A stretch of 20,000 bases of DNA from an uncultured virus (IMG/VR IMGVR_UViG_3300037067_016734) (lineage: Duplodnaviria; Heunggongvirae; Uroviricota; Caudoviricetes). The stretch lies in the IMG/VR virus record IMGVR_UViG_3300037067_016734; one strand, 5' to 3'. Under the pieces are notes generated by a model. It did not search any database, had not been told where the DNA came from, and worked only from the letters and a program-made list of their open reading frames with translations. Below are positions 2,281 to 18,704 of this stretch, piece after piece. A program made the position numbers and the translations under genes. Within the stretch, counting starts at the first letter, position 1. Every line of letters begins with the position of its first letter.

Positions 2281-2575
2281 CAGCTTCTATCTCCTTGACG
2301 ATTTCATCTAGAGGAGCAAAACCTTGGAATTGTTTCTTAAGGAAACTAATCCAATTCTTATTGCTATAAGAAAAGCCTTGTCCAAACCCTATAAAATGTC
2401 CTGCATCATAAGCTATATAAAAACTAATATAAAAAATTGATGCTACTATCATACCACCTATAATTGCAAGGGGTGTTTTAGTAACAAAAGTTAATCCATA
2501 CCACGTTAATATAGCAATGATAAGAGGAAAAAGGATAATATAGATTTCTCTAGCTTTTTGTTGGTAGAATCTCAT
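2264..2575 (-). CDS. Hypothetical membrane protein (2 TM segments)
   Basis: Hydrophobic stretches IYIILFPLIIAILTWYGL and LAIIGGMIVASIFYISFYIAY; AGGAG SD upstream; ATGA overlap with the tnpB stop. Confidence 0.75.
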   Translation of the reverse strand: MRFYQQKAREIYIILFPLIIAILTWYGLTFVTKTPLAIIGGMIVASIFYISFYIAYDAGHFIGFGQGFSYSNKNWISFLKKQFQGFAPLDEIVKEIEADEGKS

Positions 2576-3675
2576 TTTGAGTTTTCTCCTATATGTTTTT
2601 TAGGAGCGGCATCTACCATTGCGATTGAAAATCGCGCTGCTGCCGCTTCCCCGCGCTGAAGGATGTTCTTTGCCGCATTGATATCGGCGTGTTCTCTGTG
2701 GCTACACGAACATCGAAAAACATCTCCGACACGGTTCTTTTTGTCGGCTTTTCCACACGCGGAACAGGTGATGCTTGTTTGATAAGGACTAACGCTTCTA
2801 AAAGCAACACGGTTGTCTTCACAGAAGCGTTGAATCCTCGACAAAGCATAGCCTTGATTCCAACTGCCGATCAAACAACGAGTCCGTTTTTGAACTCGTC
2901 TCTGTTTTGTGCCTGAAGAGATTCCCTTCAGACGTTCAACATACAAAGTTTTGGCTTCACTCGGAAGCGATTTGATTGTCCGGTTCATTTCATTGCGGAG
3001 ATGGATTGCTTGTCCTCTACGTCCCTTTGAACCCGGTCTTTTGCGAAGCATTTTTTCAATGATTGGTTTGATGTCTCCTAACAATTCTCCTTCCGAAGTT
3101 GCAAGGAAATGATTGATTCCAAGATCAATCCCGATTGCTCTTCCCTCTTCTCTTTTTGTTCCCGTTTCAATCTCGAAAGAGAATTGAACTTTGTCGGGAG
3201 AAAGAAGGCAGGCTTGATTCATGCGTCCGCGTTTTTGTAGGTTCTTGAAATGTTTATGAGATTTGATGGGGAGATCAAAGATTAAACCATCACCGATGCT
3301 TTTAAGATGCAACCAATAATCAAAATAAGTCGTTTCTTCTGGAAATTGCAATTCCGCGAATTGATTCATATCCCTTAAACGAATCGATTTTCCAGAATGT
3401 TTTGGTTTGGAATATTCGCATTTTAAGCTTTTAGCGGCATTTTTTGTTGCTTTGATCATGTAGATTGCTTCGTTGGCGGCTTCCCGTTTCAGTCCAGCGG
3501 ACAACCAAGAATCGATTTTAATTTTTGTGATTCGTTTTTCAGGAACGTCTTTCCAAAATCGATCTATAAATAAATTCACCAATCGGCTATATTCCGCAAT
3601 CACAATTCGCACCAAATCCCGCTTTTCCTGAGAAGCAAATTTTAGAGAACAAGTTGTGGAACGAATTGTTTTCAC
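2572..3675 (-). CDS. tnpB: TnpB / Cas12f-like RNA-guided RuvC endonuclease (IS200/IS605 TnpB family)
   Basis: RuvC-I AIGIDLGINHFLATS, RuvC-II LYVERL, zinc finger TSITCSACG...FRCSCS, RuvC-III HADINAAKNIL; 367 aa; catalytic D/E/D appear intact; visibly more GC-rich than its flanks. Confidence 0.9.
   Translation of the reverse strand: MKTIRSTTCSLKFASQEKRDLVRIVIAEYSRLVNLFIDRFWKDVPEKRITKIKIDSWLSAGLKREAANEAIYMIKATKNAAKSLKCEYSKPKHSGKSIRLRDMNQFAELQFPEETTYFDYWLHLKSIGDGLIFDLPIKSHKHFKNLQKRGRMNQACLLSPDKVQFSFEIETGTKREEGRAIGIDLGINHFLATSEGELLGDIKPIIEKMLRKRPGSKGRRGQAIHLRNEMNRTIKSLPSEAKTLYVERLKGISSGTKQRRVQKRTRCLIGSWNQGYALSRIQRFCEDNRVAFRSVSPYQTSITCSACGKADKKNRVGDVFRCSCSHREHADINAAKNILQRGEAAAARFSIAMVDAAPKKHIGENSK
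2603..2650 (-). other. Nested RNA/DNA hairpin at the tnpB 3' end (candidate omegaRNA/right-end element)
   Basis: Outer stem GGAGCGGCA (2603-2611) / TGCCGCTTCC (2641-2650) with one bulge, enclosing inner stem GCGAT-TGAAA-ATCGC (2621-2635); lies directly downstream of the RuvC-III codons. Confidence 0.45.
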
Positions 3676-4348: not shown

Positions 4349-4963
4349 TTGAAGCTTGTAAGAAATAATAACAGCGAAGACCAAACCACGTTTAATTCAT
4401 ATGATTATGAACACGGCATTATACGCCTTTATGATGAGATTAATTTTAAAACTGTAAAAGAAATAAGTGAATTTCTTTGGAGTTATTTAGATATTCCGCC
4501 AATCGCAATCACTTCCAATGGTACCTGTATCACAAAGCCTCTAACAGTTGAGATTATGTCTCATGGTGGTTGTTTAAAGAGTGGGATGGCTGTTTACGAC
4601 ATGTTTCAAAAATTAAAGGTAGCCTATGCCCAATTACCTAGTCGTCTTCAGTTAACTACGGTTGGGATTGGGTATGTAGCTTCTAGTGCTACTATTATAT
4701 ATGCAGCGGGAGATAGAAGGTTGGCTTATCCTCATACAGAATTCCTTCTTCATCAACCCGCTCTAACCGGTGTTGGTGGAACAAGTGATGTTATTCTACA
4801 AGAAGGAAAATATTTAAAACTTGTAGAAGACGAAATGGTAGCCGTATACAGTAAAGTATGTAAAAAGAAAGTTGAACGTGTTCGTCTTGATATTGCAAAC
4901 AAAGAACTAGTTTTGACAGCCGAAGAAGCTATTAAATACGGACTGGTACACGAAATAATTTAA
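4349..4963 (+). CDS. clpP: ClpP-like serine protease (peptidase S14)
   Basis: IMSHGG (cf. INSPGG), GMAVYD, VASSATII (catalytic Ser), RRLAYPHTEFLLHQP (catalytic His), LTAEEAIKYGLVHEII; GGGAG SD before TTG. Confidence 0.9.
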   Translation: MKLVRNNNSEDQTTFNSYDYEHGIIRLYDEINFKTVKEISEFLWSYLDIPPIAITSNGTCITKPLTVEIMSHGGCLKSGMAVYDMFQKLKVAYAQLPSRLQLTTVGIGYVASSATIIYAAGDRRLAYPHTEFLLHQPALTGVGGTSDVILQEGKYLKLVEDEMVAVYSKVCKKKVERVRLDIANKELVLTAEEAIKYGLVHEII

Positions 4964-5007: not shown

Positions 5008-5640
5008 ATGAAAAGATCCTTTTTTACCATCACGCACGGTGGAACAATTGTAACGGAAAATTTCGGAATCCCCTCGATTGCTGATATTGCATTTTGTTTG
5101 AACAAAATTAATAGATATAACGGTTCGAGTGATCAGGCGATTAGTGTTGCATCTCATTCTTTATTAGTATGGGCTTTTGCGAAAGATAGAGGGTGGGACT
5201 GCAAGCTTCAAATTGGCTCTCTTTTTCATGATGCAGCCGAAGCCGTAATTGGAGATATTCCGTCACCCCTAAAAACTGAATACTTTGATAAATTTGAAAA
5301 GAAGATTATCAATAGAATTATGTATAGTATTGGGGTACCAGAATTAACAGAAGAAGAAGATAAGGCTGTCAATGTAATCGATAAAGAAGTTTTATCCCTT
5401 GAGGTTCATAGTGGTTTTGGACCAAATGAATTGAAATTGTTTGTCCCGCGTTTTAATTATGAATCTGAATTTGGACATATTTATGATGAAGATTATATGA
5501 GTAAATATCCCAACGTTTTAGAAATTTTAGAAGAAGTATATCATTATAACAAAGGTCTCTCATGTGAAAATAGATCACATGAAATTGTCTTCAAAAACAC
5601 CGCTCTATCTTTAATAGCACAATATCATAATTTGGAGTAA
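5008..5640 (+). CDS. HD-domain phosphohydrolase (YfbR/YfdR-like 5'-deoxynucleotidase)
   Basis: DIAFCLNKINRYNG...SVASHS...LFHDAAEAVIGDIPSPLK, the typical phage HD pattern. Confidence 0.85.
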   Translation: MKRSFFTITHGGTIVTENFGIPSIADIAFCLNKINRYNGSSDQAISVASHSLLVWAFAKDRGWDCKLQIGSLFHDAAEAVIGDIPSPLKTEYFDKFEKKIINRIMYSIGVPELTEEEDKAVNVIDKEVLSLEVHSGFGPNELKLFVPRFNYESEFGHIYDEDYMSKYPNVLEILEEVYHYNKGLSCENRSHEIVFKNTALSLIAQYHNLE

Positions 5641-5642
5641 TA

Positions 5643-5909
5643 ATGGAAGTATATAGATATAGAATTCATAAAATGTCGTTCAAGTTTGGCGGTCCTACGT
5701 GGTACATTAGTAGGGTAGAAATACACGGTACAGTAGAATGGTATGCTACTTTAAACCATGAGGTAATTTGGGTTGAATCACATGTTGATGCGGACACATT
5801 TGCAAACTTCGAATTAGCGGATAGTACATTGCAGTTATATTTTAATGATATTGATGGTCAAACTATTCTTAACGATGAAATTGTAAAGGAGATTGCCAGA
5901 GAAGAATGA
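5643..5909 (+). CDS. Hypothetical protein (88 aa)
   Basis: GGAG SD; ATGA overlap with recA. Confidence 0.7.
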   Translation: MEVYRYRIHKMSFKFGGPTWYISRVEIHGTVEWYATLNHEVIWVESHVDADTFANFELADSTLQLYFNDIDGQTILNDEIVKEIAREE

Positions 5910-6853
5910 AGACAGAAGAGGATTTAATTACAGAAATAAATAAAAAATATGGAAAAGGAACCATTAAAAGTCTAGATGATCTAGTAGATGCAGAAAGAAT
6001 ATCTACTGGTTCTTTGAAGATAGATAATCTTATTGGAGGCGGAATCCCAAGAGGACATATGACTGAGATTTATGGTACAGAATACTCAGGCAAAACTACT
6101 CTAAGTCTTCAGACTATAGCCAATGCTCAGAGACAAGGTATAAGGTGTCTTTATATATTAGTAGAACAAGTCCTAGACAAAAACTATGCTCTATCTTTAG
6201 GTGTAAATCAAAATCCTGATAATCAATTAATAATAACTCAACCTAATTGCGGAGAAGACGTTATCGGGATAGCAAAGTCGTTTTGTGAAAGTGGAACAAT
6301 TGGAGTTATTGTCTTGGATTCCGTAGCTGCCATGACATCTCATCAAGAGTTAGAAGGAAACATTGGGGATGCTAATATGGGAGTAAGGGCCAGAATCATG
6401 AATCAGGCTGTTAGAGTATTAATGAAGCCCGTAGTCGATAATAATGTTGCAATGATCTTTGTTAATCAAATCCGTCAAAACCTATCCGGTTACGGAGGTA
6501 AGTCTATTCCGGGAGGAAAGGCGTTGGGTTATGGATGCACTATTATCTTGGATTTAACTAGGGTTAAAAAAGAAGAAGGGATTATTGAGGTAAAGGCGAC
6601 AGTAGAGAAGAACAAAATCGGTATAGCCCCCAAAACTACTTTAATTAATGTCTTCTTCAACAAAGGAACCTCTATCTATCGTGAAATGGTAGATGTTGGT
6701 TTAGAAAAGAAGCTCTGGATACAAGGAGGAGCATGGATTTCTGGAATTTCAGATCAAAAAATACAAGGAGTAGATAAAGCTACTGCATATTTTGAAGAGT
6801 TAGAAAAATCAGATAATAAGTCGTTTCAAGAATATTTGGAGAAGTTAAAGTAG
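5906..6853 (+). CDS. recA: RecA recombinase (divergent, bacterial-type)
   Basis: INKKYGKG, ISTGSLKIDNLIGGGIPRG, Walker A GTEYSGKTT, Walker B VIVLDSVAAM, ELEG...ARIMNQA, FVNQIR, PGGKAL, VEKNKI. Confidence 0.95.
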   Translation: MKTEEDLITEINKKYGKGTIKSLDDLVDAERISTGSLKIDNLIGGGIPRGHMTEIYGTEYSGKTTLSLQTIANAQRQGIRCLYILVEQVLDKNYALSLGVNQNPDNQLIITQPNCGEDVIGIAKSFCESGTIGVIVLDSVAAMTSHQELEGNIGDANMGVRARIMNQAVRVLMKPVVDNNVAMIFVNQIRQNLSGYGGKSIPGGKALGYGCTIILDLTRVKKEEGIIEVKATVEKNKIGIAPKTTLINVFFNKGTSIYREMVDVGLEKKLWIQGGAWISGISDQKIQGVDKATAYFEELEKSDNKSFQEYLEKLK

Positions 6854-6986: not shown

Positions 6987-8075
6987 ATGAAAAAAGGTTT
7001 AAATTTTGATGATGTCTTGCTTTTCCCTCGTTTTTCCGATATTAGTTCTAGAACCGAACCGATTGTGAAAAGTAAAATCGTTGAAGGAATAGAGATAGAG
7101 TGTCCAATAATTCCCGCCAATATGGATTGCATCGCTTCTCCTGCGATGCATGACCTTATGTTTAAAATAAATAATAATAAAACGGGAAACTTTATTTATC
7201 ATAGATTTATAGAGATGAAAGCCTTAAAACCGGGAGATTTTGTTACTATTGGTTTGAGAGGTTTTCCTTCTGACGAATGGAACGTTAGAACATTGGCGAT
7301 AAACAATCATGATTGTCATTTTGTGATTGATATCGCTCACGCTCACTCTAAACAGGTTTTTGATGCTTTAGCCTTTTTAAAGAAAAAATATACTAAAAAA
7401 ATTATTGTTGGAAACGTAGGTACAAAAGAAGCAGCGCGTGATTTCTGTATGGCGGGAGTAGACGGATTAAAGATAGGTATAGGCTCAGGACATCCCTGTT
7501 TAACCAGAAACGTAACGGGTTGTGGAGTACCACAAATTACGGCTATCAAATGGGTATCCAAGATAGCGCATCAATTTGGAGTAACCACTATTGCAGATGG
7601 AGGGATCGGATCTTCTGATGATGCAGCGAAAGCATTGGCGGCAGGAGCCGATTCGATAATGATAGGATCAATGCTTGCAGGTACCGATGAAGCCGCAGGA
7701 AGATGGGTTAATAAATACGGGAATCCGTTAGTATATTACAAACATATTTCTCCTTCTCAACCAGATGAGCATATAGAAATCAATGATCATCCAGAATATT
7801 TAGAAGAATATATAAAACAATATGGAACAAAGGGTGTCTATAGAGAATATTGGGGTCAGAGTAGTGCCGACTATCAAAAAGTTTGGTTCGGGGGAATCAA
7901 ACCGGGAATAGTCCCAGAAGGCGAGACTCTATCTATTCCTTATAGTGGACCAGCAGAAGATACTATATATAAATTAGCTGCCGGATTAAAGTCCTCTATG
8001 TCTTATGTAGGAGCAAGAGATCTTGATGAATTTCGTAGAAAAGCTGAGTTTATTAAAGTTAACAAAATAAAATAG
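6987..8075 (+). CDS. IMP dehydrogenase / GMP reductase family oxidoreductase (no CBS domains)
   Basis: LNFDDVLLFP, IPANMD, IDIAHAHS, IVGNVGT, catalytic loop KIGIGSGHPCLTR...GCGVPQ, IADGGI, MIGSMLAGTDEA, PEG, GLKSSMSYVGA. Confidence 0.9.
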   Translation: MKKGLNFDDVLLFPRFSDISSRTEPIVKSKIVEGIEIECPIIPANMDCIASPAMHDLMFKINNNKTGNFIYHRFIEMKALKPGDFVTIGLRGFPSDEWNVRTLAINNHDCHFVIDIAHAHSKQVFDALAFLKKKYTKKIIVGNVGTKEAARDFCMAGVDGLKIGIGSGHPCLTRNVTGCGVPQITAIKWVSKIAHQFGVTTIADGGIGSSDDAAKALAAGADSIMIGSMLAGTDEAAGRWVNKYGNPLVYYKHISPSQPDEHIEINDHPEYLEEYIKQYGTKGVYREYWGQSSADYQKVWFGGIKPGIVPEGETLSIPYSGPAEDTIYKLAAGLKSSMSYVGARDLDEFRRKAEFIKVNKIK

Positions 8076-11749: not shown

Positions 11750-12022
11750 ATGCATTTGGTAATAAGAAACTCTAAAACGGGACAGTTTGCTAATTGTGGT
11801 ACCACCAAGAGATTGCCTCCCGTTAAAACCGACAGAGGCGTTAGATCGTTAGAACAGCTTATAGGTTATTGGTTGTTCTCTTTTAAAGATAGAGCCGAGG
11901 ACTGCATAACTCCCTTCTTTGTTGAATGCTATACAGAGAAGAGAAAGTTTAAGGCTTTGATCTCTAGTCACGGAGCGGTAAGAACGGTTGAATGGGTTCT
12001 TATAGAAAAGAAGAAAAGATGA
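11750..12022 (+). CDS. Basic hypothetical protein (90 aa)
   Basis: ATG 11750 (MHLVIRNSKTG...) lies 7 nt after the -10 box; the ORF-track start is inside the promoter. Confidence 0.7.
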   Translation: MHLVIRNSKTGQFANCGTTKRLPPVKTDRGVRSLEQLIGYWLFSFKDRAEDCITPFFVECYTEKRKFKALISSHGAVRTVEWVLIEKKKR

Positions 12023-14898: not shown

Positions 14899-15113
14899 AG
14901 ATCTTAAATCTTTGTAATCTGCTTCAAAGTTGTTCTGATATCTCTATCTCCTGTGAAGGTGAATCAGAAATAGTAATAGATGGTGGAAGAATTAATATGT
15001 CTTGTTTTCTAAAGGATTATTCAAGTGATGAAGAAGAGAGTCTTAAAGAATTAATATATAATTTACTAGAGATAATGTATGATAATAACCAACGAAGACT
15101 TAGTAATTGTTAA
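14895..15113 (+). CDS. Small protein, 'TxLNxxNL' family, copy 8 (variant)
   Basis: MKILNLCNLLQSCS; ATGA overlap. Confidence 0.65.
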   Translation: MKILNLCNLLQSCSDISISCEGESEIVIDGGRINMSCFLKDYSSDEEESLKELIYNLLEIMYDNNQRRLSNC

Positions 15114-15540
15114 AGAGACTGCACATAAAAGACGTTCAGAGAGTATTAAAAAACACTTAAGAAACGACTTATTTGGATCTAAAAAATCTTATGATTTTCT
15201 GGGAGCATTAGGCGAACTAGCTCTATCTAAATATCTAGGGATACCTTATGTACCTACAGTTAATACATATAAACAACCAGATGTAGCAGGATATCAAGTT
15301 AGGACTACAACTAGACCGGATGGATGTTTGATAATTAGAAAGAAAGATAGAGTAGAAGATGTGTATGTTTTGGTGGTAGCGAAAGAATGTTCTGAGGGTT
15401 ATGATTGTGATATAATAGGTTGGTGTCGTGGAGATTTACGTGAAGATCGGTTTCTACGTAACCCAGGAGATTTTGTGGACGGAGAGAGTTGGTTCATTCC
15501 ACAACTCTATCTTAATAAAATGGAAACATTGGAGAATTAA
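15079..15540 (+). CDS. PD-(D/E)XK-like (restriction-endonuclease fold) phage protein
   Basis: GALGELALSKYLG...PDVAGYQVRTT...YVLV...IIGW; the catalytic motif is a variant (Q-V-R for E/D-x-K). Confidence 0.55.
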   Translation: MIITNEDLVIVKETAHKRRSESIKKHLRNDLFGSKKSYDFLGALGELALSKYLGIPYVPTVNTYKQPDVAGYQVRTTTRPDGCLIIRKKDRVEDVYVLVVAKECSEGYDCDIIGWCRGDLREDRFLRNPGDFVDGESWFIPQLYLNKMETLEN

Positions 15541-15993
15541 ATGGATATGGTAGAATATATTATACTTATTAGTGTTCTTTCTTTGATTATAGGAGGAATG
15601 CTATTTTTTCTAATATATATGTTATGTATGTCAACCATAGGGGCGCATCTTAGATGGAAGAAAAGAATGAAATGTTGGTCAAAAGAACCAGCCACCATTG
15701 AAACATTAATTAACGATAATGGCGATATTGAATATCGCCTGACTCTTTATTATCCTACTATTGATGGGGATGGTAACTATATAGACTGGAATGAATCGAT
15801 AGGTACTTGGAAAAGCAAAGAGAAGGCTGCTGATTATGCAAAAAAGAATATTGAAGAATATATAAGCAAAGCTAACTCTAAAAGAAAACATGTTATTTAT
15901 TCAGATGTTATATATCCGAGCGATATCGAACTAGAAGAGATACCAAGTAAGACAGAATCACAAAAGGAGAAAATGACTTATGAAAAAGGGTAA
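15541..15993 (+). CDS. Hypothetical protein with N-terminal TM anchor
   Basis: GGAG SD; hydrophobic N-terminal ~30 aa. Confidence 0.7.
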   Translation: MDMVEYIILISVLSLIIGGMLFFLIYMLCMSTIGAHLRWKKRMKCWSKEPATIETLINDNGDIEYRLTLYYPTIDGDGNYIDWNESIGTWKSKEKAADYAKKNIEEYISKANSKRKHVIYSDVIYPSDIELEEIPSKTESQKEKMTYEKG

Positions 15994-16267
15994 TTATGTT
16001 TATTTATTAGAACATGATACGAAAAACGGTACAGCTAACACCTGTTTAATTGTTTCTCATTTTCCAGCAGAACCATTAGACAAAGATATGTTTCCAGATG
16101 AACCAGATAAAAGGTTGATAATTGTTTCTAATGGAGTAAACTCTCCAACTATAAGAATTGAAATTTATGATAAAGAGGAAGAAGAATCTAAATGGGTAGA
16201 AACTAGTTTTGATGAATTGATTCGGGGAGTAAACGATGAAGATTGGGTATTTGATTCTGAAGAGTAA
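15980..16267 (+). CDS. Hypothetical protein (95 aa)
   Basis: AAGGAG SD; overlaps the upstream gene. Confidence 0.7.
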   Translation: MKKGNYVYLLEHDTKNGTANTCLIVSHFPAEPLDKDMFPDEPDKRLIIVSNGVNSPTIRIEIYDKEEEESKWVETSFDELIRGVNDEDWVFDSEE

Positions 16268-16281
16268 AAAGGAGTAATTCG

Positions 16282-16965
16282 ATGAATGCAATTTTAACAA
16301 TTCATAGTGGTGCCGGTGGAACAGAAGCAACGGCTTGGGCCGAAATGCTTTATTGAATGTATATCGGTTATGCCAATAAAAATAGCATAAAATATGATAT
16401 AATAGAACTAAACAAAAAGGATTCAGGTATTCAATCGGCTGTTCTTAGGTTAGAAAACGTTTCTGACGATATAGAGAAAGAACACGGTATCCACCGTATT
16501 CAGAGAGTTTCGCCGTTTGATAAAAGAAAAAGACGACACACAAGTTTTGCATCCGTTACAGTGATTCCGGAAATAGAAGATAGAGTCTTAGAGATCCCCG
16601 AGAGGGACTTAGAGGAGACCTTTAATCGTTCTACTGGACATGGCGGACAAAACATTAACAAAGTATCTACGGCTGTTAGGTTGAAACATAAACCTACCGG
16701 TATCGTGGTAAATTGTCAAATGGAGCGTTCTCAATACCAGAATAGAATGCTTGCTCTATCTTTATTAAAAAGTAAATTACAATACCTAATGGAACAACAA
16801 CAGAAAACAGAGCTTGCAAACTTGGTAGTTAGGGAAGATATTGCTTTTGGAAATAAGATTAGAACATACTCTTTCCATCCTCAAGAATATATTGTTGATC
16901 ATAGGACGAATAAAAAAGCTAACCTTAAAAGTGTTTTGGATGGAAACCTAGAACTGGTATGGTAA
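16282..16965 (+). CDS. prfB: Peptide chain release factor 2-like protein lacking domain 1, with in-frame TGA at codon 25 (16354-16356)
   Basis: AAGGAG SD then ATG 16282: MNAILTIHSGAGGTEATAWAEMLY*MYIGYA (cf. RF2 [26 protein letters not shown]). Also HGIHRIQRVSPFD (SPF = RF2 specificity), RRHTSFASV, GHGGQNINKVSTAVRLKHKPTGIVV, ERSQYQNR, IRTY. Confidence 0.9.
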
Positions 16966-16966
16966 A

Positions 16967-17158
16967 ATGACTCAATTAAACATAGACAACTTGGTTTATT
17001 CCTGTTTTGGATCTTTTCATAAAAACAATAGAAGCACATATATTCTTGAAAGACCAGAAGGGGGAAGTTGGCATTGTTTACAAGAATTCTATTACTTTAA
17101 AACAGAAGACGAACGAATGAGATTAATAGAAAATATGGATTATTGGTTTAATTATTAG
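16967..17158 (+). CDS. Small protein, 'TxLNxxNL' family, copy 9
   Basis: MTQLNIDNLVYSCFG; starts 1 nt after the RF2 stop. Confidence 0.75.
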   Translation: MTQLNIDNLVYSCFGSFHKNNRSTYILERPEGGSWHCLQEFYYFKTEDERMRLIENMDYWFNY

Positions 17159-17171
17159 GATAAAGTATTGT

Positions 17172-17459
17172 GTGGAACAAGACGTATTTGACTATTGGTA
17201 TACAATGGTGTATTTTTTATTAGTAATTGGTACTATTATATTTCTAGTCGTAGGGATAGGTTATCTGAATAATCTATTACCTTTAGTGATTTCTCAACGA
17301 CATGAGATTAGAATGCATCCAAAGAGACTGAGAAATAGAGTCTTGCTCTATCTTGTGAGATGGGAAGATTTAATGATTAAGAGTCTAGATTATGACGAAC
17401 AAGATGAAGATTTAAATTTTATTATAGGGTACAAAAGAAATGGGAACCATCGCTTATAA
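17172..17459 (+). CDS. Hypothetical single-TM protein
   Basis: Hydrophobic segment MVYFLLVIGTIIFLVVGIGYL. Confidence 0.65.
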   Translation: MEQDVFDYWYTMVYFLLVIGTIIFLVVGIGYLNNLLPLVISQRHEIRMHPKRLRNRVLLYLVRWEDLMIKSLDYDEQDEDLNFIIGYKRNGNHRL

Positions 17460-17886
17460 ACAAACCATCTCTCCCGATGTGAGTAGTGACAATATAACCG
17501 CACTATGTGATGTTTTAAAAGAAGAAGCTTATAAAAGTTTCTTAGCTCTTAAAAATTGGAAAGAAGCTCTTGACGAATATACTCCAATTTTAGCAAGAGT
17601 GGTATTTGATCACGCTTTGGCTCATAATCCTAATGCTTTTGATTTTGATACTGTTAAAAATGCTGTTATCATAAAAGTGAATACTACTCAAGTTAAACAA
17701 ATTTTAGTAGAAATGCTTGATCCTGTAGCTTTACAAGCTATATACATAGGTCTTGTAGATCAAAAGTTAGCTAATTGGATAAAACGAGTAGAGTGGATGG
17801 ATAAAAGAATTTGTGATATAGAAAGTGGGTTAATATCTCTGAACCCTCATTGTCCTAAAATTACATGGGTGGAATTTATCGAATGA
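17440..17886 (+). CDS. Hypothetical protein (148 aa)
   Basis: Coupled ORF; no recognised motif. Confidence 0.7.
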   Translation: MGTIAYKQTISPDVSSDNITALCDVLKEEAYKSFLALKNWKEALDEYTPILARVVFDHALAHNPNAFDFDTVKNAVIIKVNTTQVKQILVEMLDPVALQAIYIGLVDQKLANWIKRVEWMDKRICDIESGLISLNPHCPKITWVEFIE

Positions 17887-18704
17887 AAAATGCTTACTCA
17901 AAACCAGAAATTGATGAACTTTACACAGAATTTCCAAATTCAACACCTTTATGGAGAGCCATAGTAAGTTTTCTTATAATTTTAATGTTATCGTTGAGCA
18001 TAATGCTGCTATCGAACAAATGTTCAAACACTCAGGATAGTTTTGATTGGTCTAAACAGCCATATCAAAACATTGTTCCTCCTGTAGTGGGAAAGTGGTT
18101 TGATCCTAATGTTTCAGTTAGGATCGATCCTGCTGTATATCCCGCTAGTGGTGACGTTACTCCTATTCCTGCTTATATCAAAGATCTTTGTGCTAAAGAT
18201 ACACAAGATATTTCTACTGGTGTATTTAGTTATTGTAAAGATTTCGGGTTGAATTTTTCTCCTTCAGAAACAAATCCTGAAGTTGTTATAAAATTCTATT
18301 ATGGACCTTGGGCCACTAAGGGCGTAAAAGGGATAGAGGGAGGAGTAAGAGATGTGGTGATTGTCCGTGAAAAATCTACGTCTGTTAATGAGGCTCCCAC
18401 TAGAGAAAACAATTACAACGGTCTGACTTATGTTAACGCTAAATCCAAACACTACGTTTCAGTAATAGTATGGATTAATGTTTATATTTATGAGGACTAT
18501 CGTATTCAGTGTCTCAACAATCCATCTCTTGATTTTAAGACTCTATCTAAAAATGCAATAAGTCAGATAGAGTGGCATGAATTCTTCCATGTTGTAGGAC
18601 TGAACGATGATAGAGTTGGTACCATTCCAGGTTTAATGGTCTATAAGGTAATGAAGACCAGACCTAGTGATGCTGAGAGAGGGGTATGTGAGTGGCTTTA
18701 TTGA
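17883..18704 (+). CDS. Membrane-anchored metzincin (matrixin-like) zinc metalloprotease
   Basis: N-terminal TM (AIVSFLIILMLSLSIMLLS); HEFFHVVGLND (HExxHxxGxxD) followed by Met-turn-like GLMVY; start at ATGA overlap 17883. Confidence 0.7.
   Translation: MKNAYSKPEIDELYTEFPNSTPLWRAIVSFLIILMLSLSIMLLSNKCSNTQDSFDWSKQPYQNIVPPVVGKWFDPNVSVRIDPAVYPASGDVTPIPAYIKDLCAKDTQDISTGVFSYCKDFGLNFSPSETNPEVVIKFYYGPWATKGVKGIEGGVRDVVIVREKSTSVNEAPTRENNYNGLTYVNAKSKHYVSVIVWINVYIYEDYRIQCLNNPSLDFKTLSKNAISQIEWHEFFHVVGLNDDRVGTIPGLMVYKVMKTRPSDAERGVCEWLY

Follow-up and report, generated by a model that had tools for sequence, protein, structure and literature searches.

An in-frame UGA at codon 25 of a phage gene for an RF2-type release factor: a candidate read-through gate

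A short RF2-type gene interrupted by a stop codon

The stretch of DNA analysed here, referred to below as the window, comprises 20 kb of a 72,979-bp contig from an uncultured virus, in which 43 genes (6,358 codons) were called. On its plus strand lies a gene of the bacterial release factor type whose reading frame is interrupted by a TGA at codon 25 and continues, in the same frame, to a terminal TAA. The positions first assigned to its Shine-Dalgarno element, its two ATG codons, the TGA and the TAA by a reading of the sequence alone (hereafter the sequence-only reading) proved exact, and the anatomy of the locus is as follows:

16269..16274, plus strand: Shine-Dalgarno sequence AAGGAG, 7 nt upstream of the ATG (read from the sequence and found by a Shine-Dalgarno scan)
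16282..16353, plus strand: first 24 codons of the RF2-like gene, start ATG at 16282-16284 (translation, alignment, AlphaFold2)
16354..16356, plus strand: in-frame TGA, codon 25, the proposed gate, in the column of an invariant Arg; same letters in sequencing runs X1 and X3
16357..16965, plus strand: remaining 202 codons and TAA, with ATG at 16357-16359, TAA at 16963-16965 and the SPF and GGQ motifs inside

Translated in one frame, the gene yields 24 residues, a stop and 202 further residues, or a product of 227 residues when it is read through with X at the stop. This read-through product matches the Pfam families PCRF (1.3e-29, residues 2–92, profile positions 101–194 of 194) and RF-1 (1.3e-33, residues 103–208), both above their cutoffs, with SPF at residues 77–79 and GGQ at residues 121–123. 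The best NCBIfam model is prfB (TIGR00020), at 267.4 bits over model positions 117–345 of 353 and short of its cutoff of 370; two prfA-type models follow at 201.7 and 189 bits, below their cutoffs, and prfH (TIGR03072), at 88.1 bits, does not reach its cutoff of 166.65. Among solved structures, the closest are chains of bacterial RF2 such as 9fy1_8 (2.1e-51, with the alignment covering residues 126–354 of that chain), and SPF is the codon-recognition motif of RF2 (PMC6742477, in excerpt). Since the preceding gene ends at 16267, there is no room upstream in which domain 1 could be encoded, and the gene, to judge from these matches, encodes an RF2-type release factor without domain 1. The Pfam and NCBIfam matches, together with the alignment described below, agree with the initial impression that both halves are intact, with SPF and GGQ present and a TAA at the end. 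A Shine-Dalgarno scan of 39 starts found the 6-mer AAGGAG before ATG 16282 at a spacing of 7 nt, one of four 6-mer matches, and no such sequence before ATG 16357.

Authenticity of the stop codon

Six sequencing runs, none of RNA, matched positions 15900–17200, and Logan contigs of four of these (X1–X4) were compared with the window. In X1, a groundwater run and the probable source, one contig is identical across the whole compared stretch, and in X3, a landfill run belonging to a different study, a contig of 236 nt (record 12, covering 16211–16446 at a depth of about 2) shows no differences, TGA included. Pieces from X2 (landfill) and X4 (wastewater) are identical to other parts of the stretch and do not span the codon. 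Other contigs that pile up on 16296–16351 derive from release factor genes of bacteria, unrelated to the window, in which the codon is AGG, CGC or AGA. For two diverged pieces that do span it (X1 record 3 and X3 record 13), the comparison leaves out differences near the ends of a piece, so that the TGA is not scorable in them. The letters at 16354 are unchanged in the contigs of both X1 and X3. The stop is genuine, because the identical contig recurs in a second study, and the sequencing error that had been listed among its possible origins is unlikely.

Relatives and age of the interruption

A protein search returned 7,999 matches, the nearest of which are P0002 (205 aa, 71% identity), P0003 (206 aa, 69%) and P0004 (207 aa, 55%); beyond P0004 identity drops to about 50%, and the matches are ordinary bacterial RF2. 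All three of these proteins begin at the Met directly after the stop column, as does the database call for the window itself (P0001, 202 aa), where the cause is the TGA. A start at that Met occurs in none of the 116 other aligned homologues, and when 1.84 billion representatives were searched with a profile, the match began at the protein's own first residue in four of the 149 other listed proteins, all four opening with MY. Within the same set of representatives the clade forms one cluster at 50% identity, scoring 410 bits, with the next match at 235 bits. P0001–P0004 share 87 invariant columns, SPF and GGQ among them, and no frame is disrupted; with the downstream 202 codons intact in all four, decay is a poor fit.

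A Met three codons before the stop is conserved in 116 of 116 homologues. If the relatives keep it, a stop lying beyond it would most likely have led gene callers to choose it as the start, and the break in the relatives should hence lie within about three codons of the same place. From the points at which the relatives' called proteins begin, we infer that the stop is old and common to the clade; their shared start would also be seen if that Met were the true first codon of their genes. A TGA held in common by homologous release factor genes, which the sequence-only reading had proposed as a check, would fit the close relatives (3 of 3 start after the codon); the other 116 homologues all carry Arg.

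These relatives also bear on whether the stop is a plain nonsense mutation, from CGA or AGA to TGA, in a gene that is dead or dying. One base change from an Arg codon would be enough, the Arg is invariant, a second invariant residue (an Asp seven positions upstream) has been lost as well, and the clade has few members. Relatives down to 55% identity nevertheless imply a break at the same point, while their frames of 202–207 residues are open and keep the catalytic motifs, and the same letters stand in the contig from the second study. A one-base accident, which the sequence-only reading had allowed for, is disfavoured by this shared break with intact frames, and we consider it highly improbable.

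No DNA of the clade was found in IMG/VR, either by protein search or with the four-member alignment. Searched with that alignment, metagenome contigs gave 15 loci, all at 48% identity or less and none of the clade, and GTDB genome contigs gave five ordinary bacterial RF2 genes only. A scan of IMG/VR for the junction produced no match with a strict pattern and 44 stretches with a loose one, none of the 44 being a release factor gene. Among phage records, megablast of positions 15000–18500 found no match, and tblastn found 91 records, all below 47% identity and mostly bacterial-type RF2. One homologue (H34) seemingly starts at residue 26; it is a damaged bacterial-type prfB and was set aside as no parallel case.

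The stop column, the upstream codons and the predicted fold

When the read-through product is aligned with 119 homologues from the protein search, all 116 that reach the TGA column have Arg there, the remaining three (P0002–P0004) starting one residue later, which upholds the initial placement of the stop at the Arg of an LRMY motif. The Met after the stop column (R-M-Y) is present in all 119. Upstream, the 24 codons carry the RF2 majority residue, as defined by the 116 homologues, at 20 of 23 aligned positions, keeping the invariant H, G-A-G-G-T-E, W and M; the window has Ala in place of the invariant Asp seven residues ahead of the stop.

An AlphaFold2 model built on 34 sequences (mean pLDDT 80.6) predicts a strand at residues 3–9, the GAGGTE loop and a helix spanning residues 14–33, and places codon 25 in the middle of this helix, where the mean pLDDT is 95 for residues 21–30. 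In the bacterial and mitochondrial mechanism of stop-codon reading, a conserved Gly and Glu at a helix tip select U at the first position (bioRxiv 10.1101/2021.03.10.434893, in excerpt), and helix 14–33 is, by its sequence, probably the equivalent of this first-base-reading helix. Because the cut falls mid-helix, the 202-residue piece alone would be without one strand, half a helix and the codon-reading element.

In a separate observation, RF2-like genes from gut metagenomes (L004–L008, at about 5400–5470) have Glu in the otherwise invariant Arg column. Between GIVA and CQAERDQ, the same genes also contain about 11 inserted codons that include an in-frame stop and resemble a small intron or an inserted element.

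The predicted fold is of consequence for another reading of the locus, in which the functional protein is the one of 202 residues that starts at ATG 16357, made by UGA termination followed by immediate re-initiation at the adjacent AUG, and the 24-codon open reading frame only delivers ribosomes or yields a peptide that binds non-covalently. The adjacency of TGA and ATG is a classic form of coupling, and ATGA coupling is found at 10 of the 12 plus-strand TGA stops in the window; moreover, all four clade proteins are called from this Met, and the piece still scores with PCRF and RF-1 and keeps SPF and GGQ. A mere leader, however, would not hold 20 of 23 RF2 majority residues, and the mid-helix cut would remove the first strand together with the helix tip responsible for reading the first base of the stop codon. 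Nor is ATG 16357 a sign of a designed restart, because its Met occurs in 119 of 119 homologues and is thus present by homology. The split, two-peptide arrangement offered by the sequence-only reading therefore retains its resemblance to the phage's own ATGA overlaps and suffers from the upstream conservation and the position of the cut; we regard it as quite unlikely.

TGA as a stop codon elsewhere in the window

TGA ends 14 of the 43 genes called in the window, the other 29 ending in TAA or TAG, in accordance with the early remark that many of this phage's genes terminate at TGA. In their 6,358 codons TGG occurs 101 times and TGA once, as codon 25 of the RF2-like gene, while internal TAG and TAA are absent; 10 of the 12 plus-strand TGA stops form ATGA stop-start overlaps. 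TGA is a working stop for the phage, with the RF2-like gene as the sole exception in the window.

An A follows the codon-25 TGA, and 5 of the 12 plus-strand TGAs at gene ends share this next base. The 121 nt around the stop fold no better than their shuffles (z-score 0.13, 114 of 200 shuffles being as good), and Rfam has no match within the window. The minimum-energy fold does contain a weak AU-rich hairpin of 6 bp that starts 11 nt past the TGA, to which one might turn if the UGA were decoded as selenocysteine with the help of a downstream SECIS element, but the comparison with shuffles and the Rfam result for the window speak against such an element, and the helix Arg position has no plausible use for selenocysteine, which leaves this option with next to no probability. 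ARAGORN found no tRNA of any kind within the 20-kb window, and hence none with the UCA anticodon that the sequence-only reading had proposed looking for.

By its protein matches, the window resembles a part of a phage genome devoted to replication and nucleotide metabolism, and the genes matched in PHROGs include the following:

1-891: clamp-loader-like
2572-3675, minus strand: TnpB-like transposase (IS605 OrfB/TnpB-like)
4349-4963: ClpP-like protease
5008-5640: HD phosphatase
5906-6853: RecA/UvsX-like
6987-8075: IMPDH/GMP-reductase-like

A second TnpB copy (P0122, 88% identical) is recorded on a contig that is likewise 72,979 bp long and is presumably located elsewhere in the same phage. At least nine small paralogous genes (about 60–90 aa) share the N-terminus M-T-E/D-L-N-x-x-N-L and are found at window positions 891, 1371, 8807, 12546, 12743, 14280, 14692, 14895 and 16967, most of them starting in an ATGA overlap with the TGA stop of the upstream gene. 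The longest-ORF starts at 11992–12022 and 17865–17886 are probably too far upstream; starting these genes at ATG 12019 and ATG 17883 gives ATGA overlaps with the TGA stops ahead of them, fitting the phage's usual coupling.

UGA encodes Gly under code 25, in Gracilibacteria or Absconditabacteria, and Trp under code 4, and code-25 lineages live in habitats of the groundwater, landfill and wastewater type. The locus might be explained by a host in which UGA is a sense codon (code 25 or 4) and RF2 is missing. A host tRNA would then translate the RF2 gene through its UGA, after which the phage RF2 would impose UGA termination, truncating host proteins, ending the phage's own TGA genes and shutting itself off. 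This would be the neatest account of why a phage carries RF2, as a host without the factor gives it an obvious use, and the other window genes indeed have no internal TGA, as has been described (PMC10746230, in excerpt) for code-11-compatible phages whose predicted hosts use code 25. Identical pieces are present in groundwater, landfill and wastewater runs, and the best named relative of the phage TnpB comes from a Patescibacteria MAG, at only 44% identity. The idea of a phage RF2 acting against a TGA-recoded host is credited to an earlier study in the preprint by Borges et al. (10.1101/2021.08.26.457843, in excerpt).

Against this, the named clues to the host are weak, those for the GMP-reductase-like protein coming from Chlamydiae and Parcubacteria at 36–38% identity; assigning a host from either this protein or TnpB was rejected, the named matches being too distant. 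The ATGA overlaps at 10 of the 12 plus-strand TGA stops would require ribosomes to terminate at UGA as soon as infection begins, and many TGA stops combined with no internal TGA are what any standard-code phage would display. A shorter distance to the next back-up stop after TGA (median 6.5 versus 12 codons, one-sided p = 0.051) was likewise rejected as evidence, because the conserved N-terminal codons of the paralogue family put a TAA in the frame of the upstream gene. The genetic-code switch proposed in the sequence-only reading thus draws no specific support from the tRNA search of the window, the back-up stops or the host matches, and we regard it as unlikely. If true, it would be the mirror image of what is known from phages that recode a standard-code host, and a phage would for the first time have been described as forcing the standard code on a recoded one.

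A possible read-through gate with negative feedback

RF2 is the only factor that reads UGA, and its self-control via an early UGA is a textbook example of recoding, known only in frameshift form. For the present gene we propose, with moderate confidence, a read-through gate that would exert negative feedback on RF2. Ribosomes would start at ATG 16282 and meet the UGA at codon 25. When RF2 activity, contributed by host and phage together, is high, most of them would terminate there, yielding a peptide of 24 residues; at low activity the UGA would more often be read by a tRNA and the full 227-residue factor would be made. Output would thus fall as RF2 activity rises, providing an in-frame counterpart of the +1 frameshift of prfB. 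Since an SPF-type factor reads UGA, such a gate would report the activity of its own product.

The gate proceeds from a stop that is real, a frame that is intact and conserved on both sides of it, and a phage that uses TGA to end its genes, and it would entail read-through, an inserted residue and an active product. It is the best-supported reading because a Shine-Dalgarno sequence precedes only ATG 16282, the upstream codons hold 20 of 23 majority residues and the stop lies mid-helix, and the upstream conservation is not expected of a leader that is untranslated or serves merely for coupling. The anatomy of the gene is compatible with the in-frame feedback anticipated in the sequence-only reading, and the protein starts suggest that the stop extends to the clade. 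The logic is the same as that established for prfB, and by analogy the release factor gene of Mimivirus indicates that an internal stop in such a gene can be read through.

Several observations weigh against the gate. The lost Arg is invariant (116 of 116), so that a product carrying Trp, Cys or Gly in its place might be impaired, and the invariant Asp seven residues upstream is also lost, being replaced by Ala. The stop bears no mark of leakiness, the next base being A as at 5 of the 12 TGAs and RNA structure being absent, and ARAGORN found no tRNA within the window. A host with normal RF2 would be expected to give only a small fraction of full-length protein. Finally, the clade is tiny, a single cluster at 50% identity, and the IMG/VR scans returned no second TGA case.

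Should the gate work, it would supply the missing in-frame form of RF2 control, located in a phage and in a factor without domain 1. It would also constitute a compact natural sensor of the capacity for UGA termination, and would imply that phages keep watch on termination in infected cells and supplement it.

Comparison with known recoded release factor genes

The closest precedent is prfB, in which RF2 is autoregulated by a +1 programmed frameshift at CUU UGA C (Atkins et al. 2016, PMC5009743, in excerpt). According to the same excerpt, an in-frame early UGA read by a near-cognate tRNA was considered for RF2 before its gene was sequenced, and among the sequenced bacterial RF2 genes that it covers none has an early in-frame UGA with continuation of the open reading frame in the same frame. 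The phage gene shares with prfB an early in-frame UGA in an RF2 gene, here at codon 25, but its frame is unchanged and no slip is needed. The context is CTT TAT TGA ATG, without CUU-UGA-C and without a Shine-Dalgarno-like stimulator 3 nt upstream, and no GGAGG-like element occurs in the 20 nt preceding the TGA. Moreover, it is a conserved Arg of domain 2 that the stop replaces and not a residue of domain 1, a domain that the phage protein lacks. Because the defining shift site and the change of frame are absent, the gene falls outside the prfB frameshift family, although autoregulatory recoding of release factors is itself a known theme. The open-access and bioRxiv literature, supplements aside, yielded no published in-frame UGA in a phage RF2 gene.

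A viral parallel is found in Mimivirus and Megavirus, whose class-I release factor gene contains internal stops passed by read-through and frameshift, with autoregulation proposed (Jeudy et al. 2012, PMC3521657, in excerpt). In both cases a virus-borne release factor needs passage through an internal stop for its full product. The Mimivirus/Megavirus factor is, however, of the eRF1 type found in eukaryotes and archaea, also requires a frameshift and belongs to giant viruses of amoebae, whereas here a bacterial-type RF2 with a single in-frame UGA resides in a tailed-phage-like genome.

Class-I release factors are also encoded by phages with altered codes, RF2 by the TAG-recoded Lak and Agate phages and RF1 by the TGA-recoded Jade phages, and as with the present gene they are presumed to adjust termination in the infected cell (10.1101/2021.08.26.457843, in excerpt). 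Those phages have in-frame recoded stops in their late genes as well as suppressor tRNAs, in contrast to the 20-kb window, with no in-frame TAG and one TGA in 6,358 codons and no tRNA. The excerpted text contains no mention of an internal stop in the Lak, Agate or Jade release factor genes, and the Lak RF2 is only about 36% identical to the present one (tblastn).

In its size and its missing first domain the protein resembles PrfH (RF-H), a release-factor homologue of about 200 residues without domain 1. It differs in its profile scores, 267.4 bits with prfB versus 88.1 with prfH, and among those window proteins that were scanned no RtcB-type partner stood out.

A similar arrangement is found in a group of short RF1-type phage release factor genes (L009–L015) that lack domain 1, are interrupted by UGA and have PxT-like motifs (PPT, SPT, PPS):

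L009, about 371-560: N-terminal part in another frame
L010, about 1692-1880: N-terminal part in another frame
L014, about 495-690: N-terminal part in another frame
L015: N-terminal part in another frame
L011, 5043: in-frame TGA at the column of the relatives' frameshift site, frame continues
L012, 474: in-frame TGA at the column of the relatives' frameshift site, frame continues
L013, 397: in-frame TGA at the column of the relatives' frameshift site, frame continues

The junction GGAG TGT CTT TGA C in L009, L010, L014 and L015 is a prfB-style +1 frameshift cassette placed in an RF1-type gene, and from the sequences of its members the gate in this short RF1-type family seems to switch between frameshift and read-through forms. 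These genes and the phage gene have in common the absence of domain 1 and an interruption by UGA, which in the RF1-type family is either in frame (L011–L013) or of the +1 kind; the phage gene differs in its SPF motif and in the column occupied by its stop. As RF1-type factors would not read UGA, a gate of theirs would report the activity of another factor. What sets the phage gene apart from them, judging by its RF2-type motif, is that the gated factor is itself the reader of UGA.
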